IMG/VR virus record: IMGVR_UViG_2767802108_000001
Span: 1 to 64,000 of that record
Strand: one strand, 5' to 3'
DNA length: 64,000 bases
Origin: a virus
Lineage: Duplodnaviria; Caudoviricetes
Shown one piece after another: positions 1-60,576 of this stretch (position 1 is the stretch's first letter; each line of letters starts with the position of its first letter). The notes beneath the pieces were generated by a model. The model saw only the letters and a list, made by a program, of their open reading frames with translations, had not been told where the DNA came from and did no database searches. A program made the position numbers and the translations under genes.

Positions 1-19
1 GTCTCGGGGAGAACCTCTC

Positions 20-733
20 GTGCGCCGGGTGTTCGCTGGCGAAGCAGGCTCAGGAGCACTTGGAGGAGTACCGGTGACGGCGGGTGGGTCGACGGCGGGT
101 GAGGCCGCCCGCCTCCACGCGGCCGCCCGGCGCGGCTGGTGGCGGACCGTCCTCCGCTGGTTCGGCGTCAACACCGTGGACCGACGTCTCGAGGCCGCCG
201 CAATCCGACGTGACCACGGACGCCTCGGGGAGGAGTGGACCGCAGCCCTGCTGACCCGATTACCGGACGGATGGACGGTTCTCCATGACCTGCGGGTGCC
301 GGGTCGCTGCTTCAACTTGGATCACGTGCTGATACCGCCGTCGGGTGCCGGGTTGATTGTGCTGGACTCGAAGAAGTGGCACGCCCAACGGTCGACGACG
401 CTGGTGCGGGGTCGGGTGTACTGCGGGCAGGAGGACCGGCACGTACAGGTGGAGAAGGTCGCCGGGTACGCGTCCGCGGTCGCCCGTGCTCTGGGGGTGC
501 CGGCGTCGATGGTGATGCCGATGCTGGTCGTCCACGGTTCCCCAGTCGCCCCTGGGGGCCGTCTGGACGTGTCTGTGCCGGGCTGGGAGCGGATGGTGCA
601 CGTGCTGGGCGCGGACCGGCTGCTGGACGTGCTGGCGGGCATGCCGGGCGGAAGGGGTCCGGTACAGCCCAACGCGCTGGTGCTCGCGGCGCGGGCGCGC
701 AGGGTGCTTCCCGACTACGGTAGTGCGGCGTAG
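20..733 (+). CDS. NERD (nuclease-related domain) protein
   Basis: G-x-x-GE...WTVLHDL...NLDHVLI...LIVLDSKKW NERD pattern; true start may be GTG ~74 after GGAGGAG. Confidence 0.85.
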   Translation: MRRVFAGEAGSGALGGVPVTAGGSTAGEAARLHAAARRGWWRTVLRWFGVNTVDRRLEAAAIRRDHGRLGEEWTAALLTRLPDGWTVLHDLRVPGRCFNLDHVLIPPSGAGLIVLDSKKWHAQRSTTLVRGRVYCGQEDRHVQVEKVAGYASAVARALGVPASMVMPMLVVHGSPVAPGGRLDVSVPGWERMVHVLGADRLLDVLAGMPGGRGPVQPNALVLAARARRVLPDYGSAA

Positions 734-1204: not shown

Positions 1205-1239
1205 AGCGCCCCCGCCTGCTTTCCTCAGGCGGGGGCGCT
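1205..1239. terminator. Bidirectional hairpin closing cassette array 1
   Basis: AGCGCCCCCGCCTG-ctttcct-CAGGCGGGGGCGCT, 14-bp stem between convergent genes. Confidence 0.8.
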
Positions 1240-1259: not shown

Positions 1260-1544
1260 TCACTTCTCGGTGGCGCGGTGGCGGCGTGCCCGCTGGTGTG
1301 CGGTGCAGTTGTGGGCGGGCAGGGTCTCCAGCGTCTCGGTGCGGACCAGGGTCCCGCAGTCCGAGCACGGGATACGGCCGGTACGCTCCCACTCCCGTTC
1401 CTCCTGCTGGTCGGCCTCGGCGCGGAGGGCGGCGGCCTTCTCCAGCCACATCCGCTCATCGTCGGTACGCGGCCCGGCGATGAGCGGGGGCACGCGGCTT
1501 TCCAGTTCGGCGGCGCGAGCGCGGAGTTCGGTCGGAGTGCTCAT
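1260..1544 (-). CDS. Small hypothetical protein with CxxC...HxC zinc motif, ends ATEK
   Basis: ATG 1544 preceded by GAGGACACCAACC; RIPCSDCG...HNC. Confidence 0.7.
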   Translation of the reverse strand: MSTPTELRARAAELESRVPPLIAGPRTDDERMWLEKAAALRAEADQQEEREWERTGRIPCSDCGTLVRTETLETLPAHNCTAHQRARRHRATEK

Positions 1545-1574
1545 GGTTGGTGTCCTCACTTCTCGGTGGCGCGG
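1545..1574 (-). repeat. ATEK-stop/RBS junction repeat (other copies at 1260, 56930, 57190, 57438)
   Basis: Minus strand GCCACCGAGAAGTGAGGAC(A/G)CC(G/A)ACC-ATG. Confidence 0.9.
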
Positions 1575-1777
1575 TCGGTTCGGGCTCCGCGTCCGGGACG
1601 GTTGGCATGGGCCGTTTTCACTTCGTCCGGGTCGTACAGGGAGTGGGCGCGGCCGTGGCTGTCGATGCGGCGTTCTACGGCTTGGACTCCCCAGCGGGAG
1701 AGGGTGCCGCGTGCGCTGCTGGGCTTGATGCCGAGGTGTTCGGCGACTTGTTTGATGGTCCAGAGGTCGTCGGTCAT
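1556..1777 (-). CDS. Small HTH DNA-binding protein (excisionase/MerR-like), ends ATEK
   Basis: LWTIKQVAEHLGIKPSSAR HTH; RPGRGARTD tail. Confidence 0.8.
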   Translation of the reverse strand: MTDDLWTIKQVAEHLGIKPSSARGTLSRWGVQAVERRIDSHGRAHSLYDPDEVKTAHANRPGRGARTDRATEK

Positions 1778-1779
1778 GG

Positions 1780-2019
1780 TCAGTCGAGGAGGCCAGCTTC
1801 GCCGAGGGAGTCGAGGACGGCCTCCAAGTCTCGGTTGATCTTCAGTTCGGTCTCTCGCACGTCCATGAAGGCCCTCGCCGTGGCGTTGGGGGTGTGGATC
1901 TTCGCGATTTCGATGGCGAACTGGTTGTAGAAGGAGATCATGTCTTCGTGGTCAGTGATGAACTTGGCGGCGAGGCGGAGCGCGGCGAGTTCCTTCTCGT
2001 TGATGGTGACGTTGGACAT
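1780..2019 (-). CDS. Hypothetical protein (first gene of array 1)
   Basis: ATG 2019 with AGGAGGACACC RBS. Confidence 0.7.
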   Translation of the reverse strand: MSNVTINEKELAALRLAAKFITDHEDMISFYNQFAIEIAKIHTPNATARAFMDVRETELKINRDLEAVLDSLGEAGLLD

Positions 2020-2068: not shown

Positions 2069-2098
2069 ACTATGCATCACGTGCTGCATAGTTGGCAA
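2069..2098 (-). promoter_or_regulatory. Sigma70-type promoter TTGCCA-N18-CATAGT with a 24-bp palindromic operator
   Basis: ACTATGCA-tcacgtgc-TGCATAGT (2069-2092) spans the spacer and -10. Confidence 0.65.
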
Positions 2099-3057: not shown

Positions 3058-3109
3058 GGTGGCTTGCCACCTCTACTATGGCAGGCCTTTTGACGGGTGG
3101 CAAGCCACC
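3058..3109. promoter_or_regulatory. Two palindromic operators GGTGGC-(TT/AA)-GCCACC flanking promoter TTGCCA-N17-CATAGT
   Basis: 3058-3071 and 3096-3109 are exact reverse complements, between divergent genes. Confidence 0.75.
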
Positions 3110-56002: not shown

Positions 56003-56584
56003 GTGCTCCTTTCCGACCTGCACCTCCGTGAAGCGATAGCCGACGGCCGGCTCGGTATCGACCCGTTCGACGAGTCGATGCTTCAGCCCGCGTCGATCGA
56101 CGTCCGCCTGGACGCCGCGTTCCGGGTGTTCGAGAGTCACCGGCATGACTGCATCGACCCCTCGGTGCAGCAGGACGATCTGACGCGGCTGGTGGAGGTG
56201 CTGCCGGGTGAGGCGTTCGTGTTGCACCCGGGGGAGTTCGTGTTGGGGTCGACGTTGGAGCGGGTGTCGCTGCCGGACACGTTGGCGGCCCGCTTGGAGG
56301 GGAAGTCGTCGCTGGGCAGGCTGGGGCTGATCACGCATTCCACGGCGGGGTTCATCGACCCCGGGTTCGAGGGGCACGTCACCCTGGAGCTCAGCAATCT
56401 GGCGACCTTGCCGATCAAGCTGTGGCCGGGGATGAAGATCGGACAGATCTGCGTGTTCCAGCTCAGCTCCCCGTCGGAGCATCCGTACGGGAGCGCGGTG
56501 CGCGGGTCCCGGTATCAGGGGCAGCGCGGGCCGACCGCCTCCCGCTCCTGGCAGAACTTCCACCGGTCAGCGTTGCCTGGGTAG
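56003..56584 (+). CDS. dcd: dCTP deaminase
   Basis: [45 protein letters not shown]. Confidence 0.96.
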
Positions 56585-56591
56585 GGTGCGG

Positions 56592-56636
56592 GCATGATGG
56601 TGCCCGCCTGCTTTCCTCAGGCGGGCACCATCATGC
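56592..56636. terminator. Bidirectional hairpin closing cassette array 2
   Basis: Perfect 19-bp stem, loop ctttcct; 23-bp core identical to 1211-1233. Confidence 0.85.
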
Positions 56637-56641
56637 GTGGG

Positions 56642-56929
56642 TCAGCGCTGTGCGAGTTCGGCGCAGTAGAACGCGAACTTGCGGCTGTAGTCGGAGTGGC
56701 CAGACGCCTGCCGCTCGACCTGCACAACGTCGTCCAGAGAGACCGCAGGGCGCCCCTGGTCGGCGCGTAGGGCATTCACGGCTTTCCACATTTCGGACCG
56801 CTCGTGCGCGGCCCAGCCGCACTCGACGCCATCGGGGCCGTCGACGAGATCCTCGCGTTCACTGCGGTCTTCCTGTGCACGTGACAGCACACGCTGGAGT
56901 CGATCAGCGATCACCCTCAGATCGGGCAT
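56642..56929 (-). CDS. Hypothetical protein (array 2, last gene)
   Basis: ATG 56929 after the junction repeat. Confidence 0.75.
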   Translation of the reverse strand: MPDLRVIADRLQRVLSRAQEDRSEREDLVDGPDGVECGWAAHERSEMWKAVNALRADQGRPAVSLDDVVQVERQASGHSDYSRKFAFYCAELAQR

Positions 56930-56940
56930 GGTCGGCGTCC

Positions 56941-57189
56941 TCACTTCTCGGTGGCGGGCAGGTGGGCACGTCCGGCGTCGGTCAGCAGGAATGGCTTACG
57001 CAGGCCTACCTCGGGACCCCACGTCGCCCACCCGTTGCGAACCAGGACCGTGCTGGTAGCGGCGGTGATCCGGCCGCCCGGGGCGTAGACGTTGGTGTCG
57101 GCGAAGGCGCGGGTGCTGCGGTAGGCGGTACCGTCGGCGAGGAGGACGAGCGCGTTTCGCTGTGTCTTCGTCGGCTTCGGGGTGCGCAT
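56941..57189 (-). CDS. Small winged-helix-like protein, ends ATEK
   Basis: PTKTQRNAL...LVRNGWA...LTDAGRAHL. Confidence 0.75.
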   Translation of the reverse strand: MRTPKPTKTQRNALVLLADGTAYRSTRAFADTNVYAPGGRITAATSTVLVRNGWATWGPEVGLRKPFLLTDAGRAHLPATEK

Positions 57190-57200
57190 GGTCGGTGTCC

Positions 57201-57437
57201 TCACTTCTCGGTGGCGGCCTGGGCCGCGCAGATCTCGTCGGCGGTCACGGTCTCGAACCAACGCCAGACGCCGTCCTCCCACTGCTCCACCTTCGCAGCG
57301 GTGGCCGGGCTGTCGGCGCCGAGGCTGGCGCGGATGAAGGCGTAGGCCTTGGCCTCGCTGGTGAACGGAGATGTTGCCTCCACGTCCGGGCCGGTGACGG
57401 TCACCCGCCACGGCTTCGACGGCTTCCTTACGGTCAT
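57201..57437 (-). CDS. Small hypothetical protein, ends ATEK
   Basis: Bounded by junction repeats. Confidence 0.75.
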   Translation of the reverse strand: MTVRKPSKPWRVTVTGPDVEATSPFTSEAKAYAFIRASLGADSPATAAKVEQWEDGVWRWFETVTADEICAAQAATEK

Positions 57438-57444
57438 GGTGTCC

Positions 57445-57648
57445 TCACTTCTCTCGCTTCGTTGCCTGTCGTTTCGGGTGCTGTGCCCGCCACGCGTCCA
57501 CTCCCTCCTCGGGCCAGAGGGAAGTGCGTCCGATCTTCTTGGGCTTCGGAAAGTCCGCTGATCGGTTGGCCAGGTTGTAGAGGCTCTGGCGGTTGATGCC
57601 GAGTCGTTCTGCTGCTTGGTCGGAGGTCAGGTAGCCGGTCAGGTCCAT
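57445..57648 (-). CDS. AlpA/excisionase-family HTH protein
   Basis: YLTSDQAAERLGINRQSLY...FPKPKKIGRTSLW; leaderless after TACGCT. Confidence 0.85.
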   Translation of the reverse strand: MDLTGYLTSDQAAERLGINRQSLYNLANRSADFPKPKKIGRTSLWPEEGVDAWRAQHPKRQATKREK

Positions 57649-57669
57649 GGGTTCAGCGTAGGCGGGGCG

Positions 57670-57712
57670 GAGTAGCTTGACTACTGCTACGCTTAGAGTA
57701 GCTCAACTACTC
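57670..57712. promoter_or_regulatory. Two palindromic operators AGTAG-N5-CTACT upstream of array 2
   Basis: GAGTAGCTTGACTACT and GAGTAGCTCAACTACTC. Confidence 0.65.
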
Positions 57713-58097
57713 CTATGACGGAAGATGGGGGAACGATGCAGGAAGCGCTGACGCCCGAACTGGAGACGCGGTGCGGCAACCCCGAGTGCGACAGGGAAAC
57801 GCCCGAGAATAAGAGCCCTGCGGGCCGCGCCCGGTACTGTTCATCCCCCTGCGCCACGAAGGCGGCCCGTCTGCCAAACGGCTCCTGACGAAGAATCGGA
57901 CTCCTATGCGATTCGGGGGTCCGATCCTTCGTTTGGCGACAGATTCACTGTCAAGATCATTTTTGTGATGCTTGATAAGCTCACATGCAGTGCATCACGG
58001 GGTGATCGACGCGAACCGGTTCGGCGTACACGGCCCACGGTGTACGTTCATGCGGAACGCGCCGCCGGCGTCCCCACCGCGAGAGGACGAACCCCCC

Positions 58098-58378
58098 ATG
58101 GAATCCACCACCGCCACTCGTGAACGGCTCCTCGCACGCCAGCAGGAACTTCGGGCGGAACTGGAGCAGGTGCAACGGCACTTGGAGCAGCTGGACACGA
58201 TGGTGGTTGCGTCGCAGTGGCGGCATAGGCCCAGCGGTTCGAAGGGGCGCGGCACCTCTATCACACCGGTACGGACGACCGCTGCAAGCTGACGAACGGT
58301 CCCGAGACCATCACCCTCTACGAAGCCCTGCAAACGGGGCTGGCCCCGTGCAGTACGTGCAAGCCGAAGAGGCCCTAG
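58098..58378 (+). pseudogene. Frameshifted coiled-coil plus zinc-binding (YH...C...PC..CKP) gene
   Basis: The ORF from 58098 continues in the -1 frame at the G-run 58244-58247 into HLYHTG..RC...GLAPCSTCKP. Confidence 0.55.
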
Positions 58379-58490
58379 TGCGGCCGACCTCGCAGTGAGG
58401 TGAGGCAATAGATCCTCTGGCTCCAGTTAATGTTCCTGATCTCGGGCTGGCGTGAGCGGGGGGAACGTCCCGGCTAGACCGTGGCACGGT

Positions 58491-59201
58491 ATGGACATGC
58501 CCCCGAAGTCGAGTACCGCAGGCCAGGAGCAGGCGCTCAAGGAAGTACGCGCGGCCGCGAAGAAGTACCTCGCCGCCGATCTGCCGCCGCTGAAGCGTGC
58601 CGCCCGCCAGGCCCTCCGCGAAGCCGTTGCCCAGGCAGCGCAGGCCGGCGTCAAACAGGTTGAGGTCGCCAGGGCCTCTGGACTGAGCAAGGCGCAGGTC
58701 TCCCGTCTCTCCCGTGGTGCCACCAGTGGCCGCACCCCGCTGCCGCCAGCCGAGTACCTGGTACGCAGCCTTCCGACGGATCCAATCGTCACCCGCTACC
58801 AGGAAGGCGCTACCGCCGTCGACCTCGGTCGGGAGTACGGGTGCAGCAGCACCACCATCCTCACCATCCTGAGGCGCTGCCAAGTCCAGGTCCGGAAGGG
58901 CCGCGAGATCGAACTGCCCGTGTCCGATGCCGACCTGGTGCGCCGGTACGTGGACGAGCGGATGCAGATCCAGGACATTGCTGCCGAGCTCGGGGTGAAG
59001 CCGAACCTGATCTCCCGGCGCCTGTCGGCGGCCGGCGTGCGCATCCCTGTGGGGCATCGTCGGATGGATCTCCCGGATGCGGAGATCGTGCGACGGTACC
59101 GGGCGGGGGAGTCGGCGAACCGGATCGCGAAGTCTTATGGCGTCAGCCATGTGACCGTGATGCGTCGGGTGCGGGAGGATCGCGCCAGACGACGCGCATA
59201 A
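58491..59201 (+). CDS. Multi-HTH DNA-binding protein
   Basis: Four HTH units (VARASGLSKAQV; LGREYGCS; IAAELGVK; IAKSYGVS). Confidence 0.8.
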   Translation: MDMPPKSSTAGQEQALKEVRAAAKKYLAADLPPLKRAARQALREAVAQAAQAGVKQVEVARASGLSKAQVSRLSRGATSGRTPLPPAEYLVRSLPTDPIVTRYQEGATAVDLGREYGCSSTTILTILRRCQVQVRKGREIELPVSDADLVRRYVDERMQIQDIAAELGVKPNLISRRLSAAGVRIPVGHRRMDLPDAEIVRRYRAGESANRIAKSYGVSHVTVMRRVREDRARRRA

Positions 59202-59236: not shown

Positions 59237-59476
59237 ATGACGGCTGAAGATGACGAGGCAACCGGACGCCTACTCGTAGCCGCCGCGCTGCACGACGGAA
59301 TGCAGCACGATGCAGCTACAGCAGAAGCGGCACAGTGGCTCGCCAAGGACTGGGAACGCACTGGCCGCATCGAAGGTTCGATGTACGCAGTCGTCATGGG
59401 CTATGCACTCAAGCACGCCACCCCCGACGAACAAGAAGCGCTGCGCCGCTGGTTCACGGAGTTGACGGCACGATGA
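59237..59476 (+). CDS. Hypothetical protein
   Basis: TAGACT -10, leaderless; coupled to the recombinase gene. Confidence 0.6.
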   Translation: MTAEDDEATGRLLVAAALHDGMQHDAATAEAAQWLAKDWERTGRIEGSMYAVVMGYALKHATPDEQEALRRWFTELTAR

Positions 59477-60576
59477 CCCAACACACCGTCACCGCCCGGC
59501 CCCGCGCCGAACTCGCCACACCTGGCAGCGCGGAAGAGGCCCTGTACTGGCTGCGCGACACCCTCGGCACCGTCGCACGCCGCGACCCACGCACCCGCCG
59601 CCTCGGCCCACGCCGCTACCGCCTCGAACTCCTTGCCGAAGTCTGCGACCGCGACACCTTCCTCCTCATCACCTCCTGGCTTGGCTCCGAAGCCGTCCCC
59701 GCGGTCACGTCCAAGCAGGCCTACGCCGACGACGTCTGTCTCTGGGCCGACGTCGCCCGGGAGTTGGGCGGCCACGAACGCTTCCACGTCGGCGCCATCA
59801 CGCCCGGCATCATCGAGACCTGGACCAAGACACAGAAGGCCCAGGGCAAGGCGCCCCGCACTATCAACCGACGCCTGTCCGTCCTCACCGCCCTCACCCA
59901 GTACGCGGCATGGAAGACGAAGGAGACCATCGCCTCACCGGTCACCAAATACGACCGGCCACGCGTCGATCCCCGCGACGAGACCACCGCCACCCCCATC
60001 CTCGAAGTCCCAGAGTTCCAGGCCGTCGTCAACGCCGCCCAAACCCCGCGCCAGGCCCTCGTGCCCGTCCTCATCTACACCCTCGCCGGCCGCGTCACCG
60101 AGTGCTGCACCGCCCAGCTAGAGCACCTTAAGAAGACGGGCGGGAAGCGCCGACTGGACCTGTCCCGCAAAGGCGGGAAGGGCCGCGTCTGGCCGCTCCC
60201 AAACCGGCTGTGCGACCTCATCGACGTGGCCACCGCTGGCCGCGATAGCGGGACGCTGCTCCTGACCGACGATGACCGTCCCATGGACCGTCACGCCGTC
60301 GACCGCCTCCTCAACCGCCTTGGCGAGGAAGCCGGAGTTCTCCCCGGCCGGGACCTCACACCGCACGTCCTGCGTGCCTCCAAGCTCACCCACATGCACG
60401 ACGCCGGCCATCCAGTAGAGGAGATTCAGGAGTACGCCGACCACGCCGCTATCGAGACGACGCTGCGGTACATCCGACGCCGCGACGACGCCGCCCGCAA
60501 GGCCAAGCACGCTGCGGCCGCAGCCGCCGTCTACGACCACTTGGTAGACCGGTTCGTCAACAGGGGAGGAATATGA
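59473..60576 (+). CDS. Tyrosine recombinase/integrase (XerC/D-like)
   Basis: AGRVTE (R), RKGGK (K), PHVLR (HxxR), ADH, TTLRY (Y). Confidence 0.93.
   Translation: MTQHTVTARPRAELATPGSAEEALYWLRDTLGTVARRDPRTRRLGPRRYRLELLAEVCDRDTFLLITSWLGSEAVPAVTSKQAYADDVCLWADVARELGGHERFHVGAITPGIIETWTKTQKAQGKAPRTINRRLSVLTALTQYAAWKTKETIASPVTKYDRPRVDPRDETTATPILEVPEFQAVVNAAQTPRQALVPVLIYTLAGRVTECCTAQLEHLKKTGGKRRLDLSRKGGKGRVWPLPNRLCDLIDVATAGRDSGTLLLTDDDRPMDRHAVDRLLNRLGEEAGVLPGRDLTPHVLRASKLTHMHDAGHPVEEIQEYADHAAIETTLRYIRRRDDAARKAKHAAAAAAVYDHLVDRFVNRGGI

Follow-up and report, generated by a model that had tools for sequence, protein, structure and literature searches.

Two small-gene arrays and their junctions

The first 64,000 nucleotides of the IMG/VR virus record IMGVR_UViG_2767802108_000001, in the following called the window, form the first 64 kb of a contig of 89,134 bases (C24). 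The window carries two arrays of small minus-strand genes, array 1 at 1260–2019 and array 2 at 56592–57712 (Table 1). Within both arrays, genes are connected by a near-identical stretch of about 37 nt, the junction, which contains the last codons and the stop codon of one gene as well as the ribosome-binding site (RBS) and the start codon of the next one. Comparison with related elements places the breakpoints of gene exchange within this junction.

For array 2, an initial annotation made from the letters alone had described four unrelated minus-strand open reading frames (ORFs) joined by near-identical repeats. The coordinates and the repeat matches agree with this description, and no relationship is seen among the four proteins, the best match between any two of them having an E value of 0.51. 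The annotation further had these proteins ending in ATEK or REK, which is found as KREK, AATEK and PATEK in the first three, while the fourth ends AQR.

The 29-mer GCCACCGAGAAGTGAGGACRCCGACCATG lies on the minus strand at 57215–57187 and 56955–56927, joining ORFs 2 to 3 and 3 to 4 of array 2, and the 37-nt stretch is 92% identical between these two full copies. A short junction, GAGAAGTGAGGACACCATG, connects ORFs 1 and 2. The third copy of the 29-mer, with one mismatch, is found 55 kb away at 1570–1542 in array 1. Since no match is expected by chance (0 in 100 shuffles) and the four array-2 proteins are unrelated, both chance and paralogy were rejected as the source of the repeat.

A position-weight-matrix (PWM) scan of the junction was run over C24, over two relatives (G401 and G403) and over 900 kb of the host chromosome. 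Here, the array-1 copy is the nearest to the family consensus among the three hits in the window. A fifth ATEK-stop, missed by the initial annotation, closes the last gene of array 1 (family F11) at 1273–1260. Neither an RBS nor an ATG follows its ..HRATEK-TGA, and therefore this end is read as a decayed terminal junction.

Table 1. Features of the two arrays (positions refer to the window).
Feature	Position	Strand	Remark
Array-1 end hairpin, loop and core (CCGCCTGAGGAAAGCAGGCGG) same as array-2 hairpin	1205–1239		
Cassette gene F11, 94 aa, ends ..HRATEK-TGA	1260–1544	-	in relatives in the array beside dCTP deaminase
Full junction, array-1 copy	1542–1578	-	PWM score 57.5
Array-1 helix-turn-helix (HTH) gene, 73 aa, C-terminus ..DRATEK	1556–1777	-	PHROG 597, like array-2 head gene
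First array-1 gene, 79 aa, start context GGAGGACACC-ATG	1780–2019	-	no known family
Promoter-like site TTGCCA-18-CATAGT	2069–2098	-	ahead of array 1
Array-end hairpin of array 2, 19-bp perfect stem, loop GAGGAAA	56592–56636		between convergent genes
Cassette gene F3, 95 aa, ends ..AQR without tail	56642–56929	-	last of array 2
Full junction, 37 nt, second copy	56927–56963	-	GGACGCC variant
Cassette gene F2, 82 aa, C-terminus ..PATEK	56941–57189	-	winged-helix-like fold suggested by model (weak)
Full junction, 37 nt: tail codons, GAGAAG, TGA inside extended Shine-Dalgarno, spacer ACACCGACC, ATG	57187–57223	-	
Cassette gene F0, 78 aa, C-terminus ..AATEK	57201–57437	-	no known family
Short junction GAGAAG-TGA-GGACACC-ATG	57435–57453	-	3-nt spacer after 13-mer
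Array-2 head gene, 67 aa, predicted HTH_17 / excisionase-like DNA-binding protein, C-terminus ..KREK	57445–57648	-	
Two 20-nt direct repeats, 85% alike, short dyads GAGTAG N5 CTACTC	57670–57715		operator-like, upstream of array-2 head gene

Anatomy of the junction

From 76 non-redundant contexts, the family consensus reads CCgACCGCGCCACC-GAGAAG-TGA-GGACACCGACC-ATG over about 37 nt, its GGACACCGACC part reading GGAC-ACCGACC. The conserved span extends from -14 (14 nt before GAGAAG) to +22, where the ATG ends, and conservation is at background level outside. In the columns +20 to +22 the ATG is represented by A 53, T 57 and G 64, and it lies exactly at +20 in 53 of the 76 contexts. A spacer of 7 nt follows the core 13-mer GAGAAGTGAGGAC in most of the 79 distinct contexts, ACCGACC alone accounting for 37, and the 3-nt form is present as ACC (seven), GCC (two) and GCT (one). 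The array genes all lie on one strand with a stop-to-start distance of 7–11 nt, and the ATG follows the GAGG by 9 nt, or by 5 nt in the short form.

The 16S gene of the 7,651,467-base genome that includes C24 ends ..CCTCCTTTCT. With the mature 3' end of the 16S rRNA placed where we take it to be, AGAAGUGAGG would pair with this tail at nine of ten positions, one G-U pair included, and the sole mismatch is the U of the UGA stop codon. This suggests that the junction core comes as close to a perfect extended Shine-Dalgarno sequence as is possible while retaining a stop codon.

The four junctions of the window fold no better than shuffled sequences (z +0.3 to +1.6; 117–196 of 200 shuffles equal or better), and on these positive z scores an RNA structure at the junction was rejected. 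A known RNA family was rejected as well, Rfam giving only the sub-threshold hairpin match described below. Inverted repeats were not found at the junctions and they are not palindromic. Furthermore, no promoter consensus was found within them, a promoter-like site being present ahead of array 1 only.

The codons of the tail differ in their usage from the neighbouring codons. For Thr, ACC is chosen 49:1 versus 45:16, for Ala, GCC 29:0 versus 67:39, and for Arg, CGC 34:5 versus 46:41, a synonymous bias with p values of 3e-4 to 1.5e-5. The variation that does occur in the tail is non-synonymous (A/T, R/H, D/G) and leaves the third positions as C, and among homologues with 73–74% identical bodies the tails differ in length (PA---TEK, PADHTTEK, PAGRNTEK). 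A nearly fixed synonymous choice combined with non-synonymous variation and unequal tail lengths argues that the constraint is not on the protein and that the tail is conserved at the nucleotide level.

A GTG within the junction (AAGTGAGG; 57203–57187, 56943–56927 and 1558–1542) is in frame with the downstream ATG in the 7-nt-spacer form only, so that ORF finders lengthen the downstream genes by VRTPT. Since the short form is out of frame, this GTG is probably meaningless. A programmed frameshift or readthrough fusing the neighbouring genes was also considered and rejected for lack of a slippery site and of a consistent frame. A homologue of the 82-aa protein (P0008) runs on past ..HLPATAG into EDTDHG, as would be encoded by GGACACCGACCATGG of the junction in another frame; this suggests a junction that lost its stop codon and thereby fused two cassettes.

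Gene content on both sides of the junction

The 79 distinct contexts link 68 protein families, 39 of which are found upstream, 47 downstream and 18 on both sides of a junction. Recurrent families nearly always differ in their partner. One family stands upstream nine times with nine different downstream families, the 78-aa family six times with six and the 82-aa family five times with five.

In ten elements an array is located just upstream of the same convergent dCTP deaminase gene. The initial annotation had proposed comparing the gene content between the repeats with that of the flanks, and at this conserved flank all ten arrays differ in content or order. The order is HTH-F0-F2-F3 in the window, F1-F2-F4-F3 in locus L109, F2-x-F0-x in L057 and F1-F0-F5 in another record. 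F11, which belongs to array 1 in the window, is found next to the deaminase in the arrays of G401 and G403. The F3 homologue of L109 has the C-terminus ..TAEK.

Compared to L109, one cassette is missing from the window, and the corresponding 182-nt gap starts in one junction and ends in the next. The loci L107 and L109 have a block of 293 nt in common that is 99.3% identical and comprises a junction, a gene and a second junction, with unrelated flanks on both sides; it reaches from GAGAAG of one junction to ..GGACACCGACC of the next. Ten alignments bounded by junctions at both ends were reported, mostly reciprocal and thus representing about five distinct record pairs, and those besides L107/L109 show 88.5–93% identity and include isolate records.

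Among blocks of at least 88% identity between different records, 58 of the 197 ends lie in junction spans, which constitute 0.95% of the sequence; this 31-fold enrichment is overstated, as the loci were chosen for holding a junction and are kin, and its null of all positions is laxer than one of all gene borders. There are 53 pairs of contexts that agree on a single side and 16 that agree on both. In G401, the tail ..AAIRNIDEK of another family is attached to the 78-aa family with 25 identical nt upstream of the junction, and a truncated F11 bears the tail after residue 46. The description of the repeat as stop codon, RBS and place of gene-content change at once thus holds, block identity starting and ending inside the junctions, and the alignments locate the breakpoints of cassette exchange there.

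Distribution of the junction and the element carrying it

The 13-mer is present four times in the window (57453, 57209, 56949 and 1564), and these copies are also the only four in the entire genome. All of them lie on C24, on one strand and at small-gene borders of the two arrays. The PWM scan gave three hits in C24 and four each in G401 and G403, all within arrays, and none in the 900 kb of host chromosome. Five near-complete relatives (G401–G405) contain 5, 4, 5, 1 and 1 copies of the 13-mer with at most one mismatch, in each case on a single strand and within a span of at most 1.2 kb.

Among 400 other genomes of the family, a 16-mer was found once each in six genomes, four of these matches being located at a stop/start border, and the reversed control gave two matches. 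Scanning one genome per species revealed 86 stretches, and Streptomyces appears in the title of 39 among the 80 listed; about 13 of these Streptomyces stretches represent two conserved chromosomal borders which share merely the core.

The search of relatives that the initial annotation had called for retrieved the junction from 27 PLSDB records, from 34 IMG/VR stretches and from many Streptomyces contigs. The PLSDB matches fall in 56 places, 24 of the records are from Streptomyces, and the genes are annotated there as 'hypothetical protein (x2)'. Many of the IMG/VR stretches belong to records of 85–93 kb. That the junction is family-wide had not been seen in the initial annotation. Deposited phage genomes (50,697 records) gave no match to the 1.4-kb array or to the 37-mer. 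No description of this junction was found in the literature searched, which did not include the pZL12 paper or any supplements, where such repeats could be mentioned.

In soil metagenomes, four runs of one study contain 5–6% of the sampled words, with no RNA run among those listed. Contigs of these runs cover the bins that hold a junction as well as the deaminase and the HTH/promoter part, and parts of the cassette bodies are uncovered. Many soil contigs match the junction only (window 56300–58100) and continue into unlike sequence on either side, and one of them continues into a zinc-finger-family tail known from relatives. These contigs are consistent with a junction that is common in mobile elements of soil Streptomyces. 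The 'joints' seen between junction copies in the soil runs have sides of less than 31 nt and are repeat artefacts.

The ends of C24 (window 1–99 and C24 89035–89134) overlap by 99 nt, which implies a circle of 89,035 bp, and C24 is probably closed at about this size. It encodes a large terminase (TerL), a portal protein and a DnaB-type helicase together with a ParA-type ATPase, a Rad52/22-family annealing protein (PF04098, 1.1e-18) and DciA, and it also has genes for WhiB, ThyX and dCTP deaminase. Against PLSDB, the terminase shows 61–83% identity to 24 of the 25 plasmids listed, each of 85–94 kb, and 59.6% to the 25th, a plasmid of 151,949 bp. Streptomyces accounts for 43 PLSDB records with a match to this terminase, and a junction match is present in 13 of the 25 terminase-sharing plasmids listed. 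Plasmid pSLE1 is among the listed terminase matches (63% identity) and, in the accessible part of its description, is called pZL12-like by its authors, pZL12 being a plasmid-phage (PMC4487206). On the combination of ParA, terminase, portal and end overlap, C24 is classified as a pSLE1/pZL12-like Streptomyces plasmid-phage and not as an integrated prophage. No tRNA was found in the window by ARAGORN, and a tRNA-linked integration was rejected on this basis.

The junction copies of the two arrays (1564 versus 57209 and 56949, same strand) are direct repeats 55 kb apart. Recombination between them would yield circles of roughly 56 and 33 kb.

A probable linker between cassettes

Taken together, we regard it as rather probable that the repeat is a translational-coupling linker which doubles as a homology patch for cassette exchange. 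The small, putatively promoterless genes would be transcribed as one operon, from the HTH-led promoter to the conserved terminal hairpin. At the level of the mRNA, the linker would end the upstream gene by a TGA located inside the extended Shine-Dalgarno sequence AGAAGUGAGG and offer an ATG that follows GAGG by 5 or 9 nt and has unstructured, C/A-rich surroundings. Whichever gene comes next, a terminating or a new ribosome could then start on it, and by this the junction would couple the translation of successive cassettes.

At the level of the DNA, the linker is the sole near-identical stretch shared by genes that have nothing else in common. If its copies undergo homologous recombination, presumably over 23–37 nt of identity, this could delete, insert, reorder and exchange whole genes in frame, and the recombining copies could belong to the same array, to two arrays or to two co-resident phages. 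Candidates for the recombining enzyme are the Rad52-family annealing protein of the element itself and the host RecA. As crossovers would occur within the last codons, unrelated proteins would gain a common, linker-encoded tail (..DRATEK). A nucleic-acid signal would thereby dictate the C-termini of dozens of unrelated proteins.

If this is correct, the arrays offer a sequence-defined case for the long-debated linker-guided modular exchange in phages, with breakpoints readable at single-base resolution. A search with the junction already retrieves small genes of 68 families from plasmid-phages, whose annotation usually amounts to a plasmid with hypothetical proteins only. Furthermore, synthetic Streptomyces operons could use the 37-mer as a candidate portable translational coupler.

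A wider proposal, which is speculative and should be taken as tentative, is that the arrays of these plasmid-phages act as an integron analogue which does not depend on a recombinase. Here, the cassettes would form a coupled operon of promoterless genes, and the 37-nt linker would be selected for short-homology capture, expression and in-frame transfer between co-resident elements. The linker-encoded tail on every protein would then be the price of cassette capture, and the junction would serve as a search key to a large pool of accessory genes, possibly including takeover or anti-defence genes.

Several points weigh against the linker interpretation, in addition to the limits of the enrichment given above. 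With or without a junction, the larger part of the non-structural DNA of C24 lacks a nucleotide match in G401 or G403; mosaicism is therefore pervasive, and variable content alone does not implicate the linker. The loci L107 and L109 are metagenome-assembled, and a chimeric assembly at their shared block is possible. Homologues of the 82-aa family that were found independently, in a search which scored 21 candidates only and thus is a sample, keep the body up to ..HLPA and then end differently: one of 18 clusters ends ..EK and two ..QK, and other tails are ..QE and ..AEE. In G401 the border between the HTH gene and the 78-aa gene is without a junction. Pairing with rRNA does not account for the positions -14 to -1 and +11 to +19. 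A recombination between the direct copies, 55 kb apart on one circle, would split the replicon. Finally, no clear Rad52-like homologue is present in G401 or G403, and the Rad52-like protein was not confirmed as a family-wide recombinase.

Alternative explanations

The junction might chiefly be bound by a phage protein or a small RNA, as a trans-acting factor that controls translation in the manner of the start-associated sequences (SAS) of Cluster K mycobacteriophages or blocks transcription like an L5 stoperator, with the shuffling being incidental. The conserved positions flanking the Shine-Dalgarno core cannot pair with rRNA, an argument which is also made for SAS in the accessible part of its description (PMC3203893). 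The motif is also missing from the host genome, has one orientation and precedes ATG starts, and an HTH gene of phrog_597 is located directly upstream of a junction in both arrays of the window. On the contrary, the copies are few (one to five) and confined to one or two arrays instead of being spread across the early genes, and no candidate factor was identified. Homology blocks ending exactly in the junction would also be left unexplained. We consider such a primary role unlikely; a bound factor would be compatible with the linker interpretation.

Stop codons that overlap an RBS are common in bacteria. The junction could thus be a passive by-product, an ordinary strong RBS with a stop codon copied by local duplication and phage mosaicism and serving neither recombination nor expression in particular. 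The mosaicism throughout these genomes would fit, as would the GGAGGACACC-ATG/GTG contexts which are also found at genes without the tail, and the many 82-aa-family homologues with other purine-rich tails (..QE, ..AEE, ..QK). This does not account for a position-specific string of about 37 nt, including four to five codons, that is common to 68 unrelated families, nor for synonymous sites in the tail which are more uniform than background. The 31-fold enrichment of block ends and the blocks bounded by junctions on both sides also speak against it, and this explanation is likewise given little credence.

The initial annotation had proposed an integron-like or recombination-driven platform for gene swapping. 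The swapping is borne out by the ten differing arrays, the one-cassette indel and the 99.3% identical cassette, and the integron-like part was not supported in the strict sense. In such a platform, the divergent tyrosine recombinase (59335–60576), 1.7 kb from the head of array 2, would move the cassettes site-specifically at the junction. The arrays do resemble an integron in their cassettes of one orientation, which are putatively promoterless and served by a common promoter, in the variable content between conserved flanks, in the repeat at the cassette borders and in this nearby recombinase. However, the recombinase scores 26.9 bits against the integron integrase model TIGR02249 (cut-off 265) and has the look of a generic Xer or phage integrase, since even its best matches, to generic models of the Xer type, all stay below cut-off. 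An IntI-type integrase is absent, and the junction, itself stop codon and RBS, forms neither an inverted repeat nor a bulged hairpin and lacks an attC-like fold or imperfect palindrome. Furthermore, the junction of array 1 is far from the recombinase, and the stretch read there has no integrase next to it. The exchange is better explained by general homologous recombination, with the short linker as the shared sequence, than by the site-specific mechanism of an integron, which is considered very improbable here.

Least credible of all is a function of ..DRATEK as a C-terminal degradation or sorting peptide selected at the protein level: many unrelated proteins do have the same 4–7 terminal residues, but the tail varies non-synonymously (A/T, R/H, D/G) with third positions staying C, differs in length and sequence among 73–74% identical homologues and is absent from most homologues, and the last two residues of the 82-aa protein model (block 81–82) are of low confidence (mean pLDDT 46).

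Comparison with known systems

Susskind and Botstein reportedly put forward the older linker hypothesis of modular phage evolution. The junction corresponds to such linkers as a short conserved gene-border sequence offering homology for module exchange, and C24 has a protein of the Rad52/22 family. In contrast, the junction is unusually defined (about 37 nt, position-specific), tandem-arrayed and bifunctional, and the annealing protein is not kept in two relatives. Rad52-like phage recombinases act on short, diverged homologies, according to the part of the source available (De Paepe et al., 2014; PMC3945230).

In its mode of action, the junction comes closest to the PeSL cassettes of T4-type phages, which undergo insertions, deletions and replacements bounded by a motif, and mini-circles have been shown for them (Arbiol et al., 2010; PMC2839356). 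As far as the accessible text of that study goes, both systems have a short conserved regulatory motif that is repeated between small unknown genes in hypervariable regions. In both, the indels and replacements between related phages are motif-bounded and point to motif–motif recombination. A PeSL combines a sigma-70-like early promoter with a terminator stem-loop, whereas the junction is translational and is neither promoter nor stem-loop. Moreover, part of the junction is coding sequence and gives the proteins their common tail, and the host and phage types differ.

In sequence layout, the junction is similar to the SAS of Cluster K mycobacteriophages, a 13-bp asymmetric motif overlapping the RBS with the consensus GGGATAGGAGCCC and 11–19 copies (Pope et al., 2011; PMC3203893). 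Within the accessible part of that paper, both are 13-bp asymmetric motifs of one orientation that overlap the RBS and precede a start codon, mostly ATG, by a few bases. Both stand at non-structural genes of different families, are missing from the host genome and have conserved positions without rRNA pairing. The sequences are different (GGGATAGGAGCCC versus GAGAAGTGAGGAC), as are the hosts, mycobacteria for the SAS and Streptomyces and close kin for the junction. The 11–19 copies of the SAS are distributed over the right arm, whereas the one to five copies of the junction are confined to one or two arrays of at most 1.2 kb. The SAS holds the upstream stop codon sometimes and the junction always, and conservation of the junction reaches 14 nt into the upstream gene. 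The SAS is discussed in that text only as a possible translation-initiation signal or binding site and not as a recombination site.

Array-end hairpins, cassette proteins and neighbouring genes

A perfect 19-bp hairpin closing array 2 had been recognized in the initial annotation. Its 19-nt arms are 100% complementary around a 7-nt loop (-41.6 kcal/mol, z -9.1). The hairpins of both window arrays have a 21-nt core and the loop in common, the twin at array 1 having been missed. All 15 family hairpins (two in the window and 13 in relatives, including L137:5664–5724) carry the loop GAGGAAA, and the stems covary at 12 pairs with compensatory changes, seven of which are changed on both sides. The hairpin lies between convergent genes, is without a U-tract and is read as a predicted operon terminator or 3'-end hairpin; the Rfam match to it was sub-threshold (24.2 bits versus 40). 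In every element but G403, its orientation faces the array transcript. There, only the loop is inverted between collinear flanks, which is the 'flip' expected from recombination between the arms.

The head gene of array 2 had been described as an AlpA/Xis-like HTH gene. This is supported by its matches to HTH_17 (1.3e-8) and to excisionase-type PHROGs; it belongs to PHROG 597, and the direct repeats with their dyads are located 22–67 nt ahead of it. For the non-HTH cassette proteins no Pfam or NCBIfam match was found, and all PHROGs matched are of unknown function. For the 78-aa protein, no named match was obtained from the ESM Atlas. The model of the 82-aa protein has its best Foldseek match, at an E value of 0.05, to winged-helix regulators, which is a lead only.

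The promoter-like site at 2098 has a near-identical counterpart at 3103 (3075–3103), and each of the two (TTGCCA-17/18-CATAGT) stands ahead of an operon. A WhiB-family gene (PF02467, 8.4e-19) is located just upstream of array 1 at 2269–2541 on the minus strand. Between the control region of array 2 and the integrase, a 249-aa protein with multiple HTH motifs (HTH_23, HTH_7 and others; phrog_664) is encoded on the plus strand at 58452–59201, and it may act in immunity or control through the dyad repeats.

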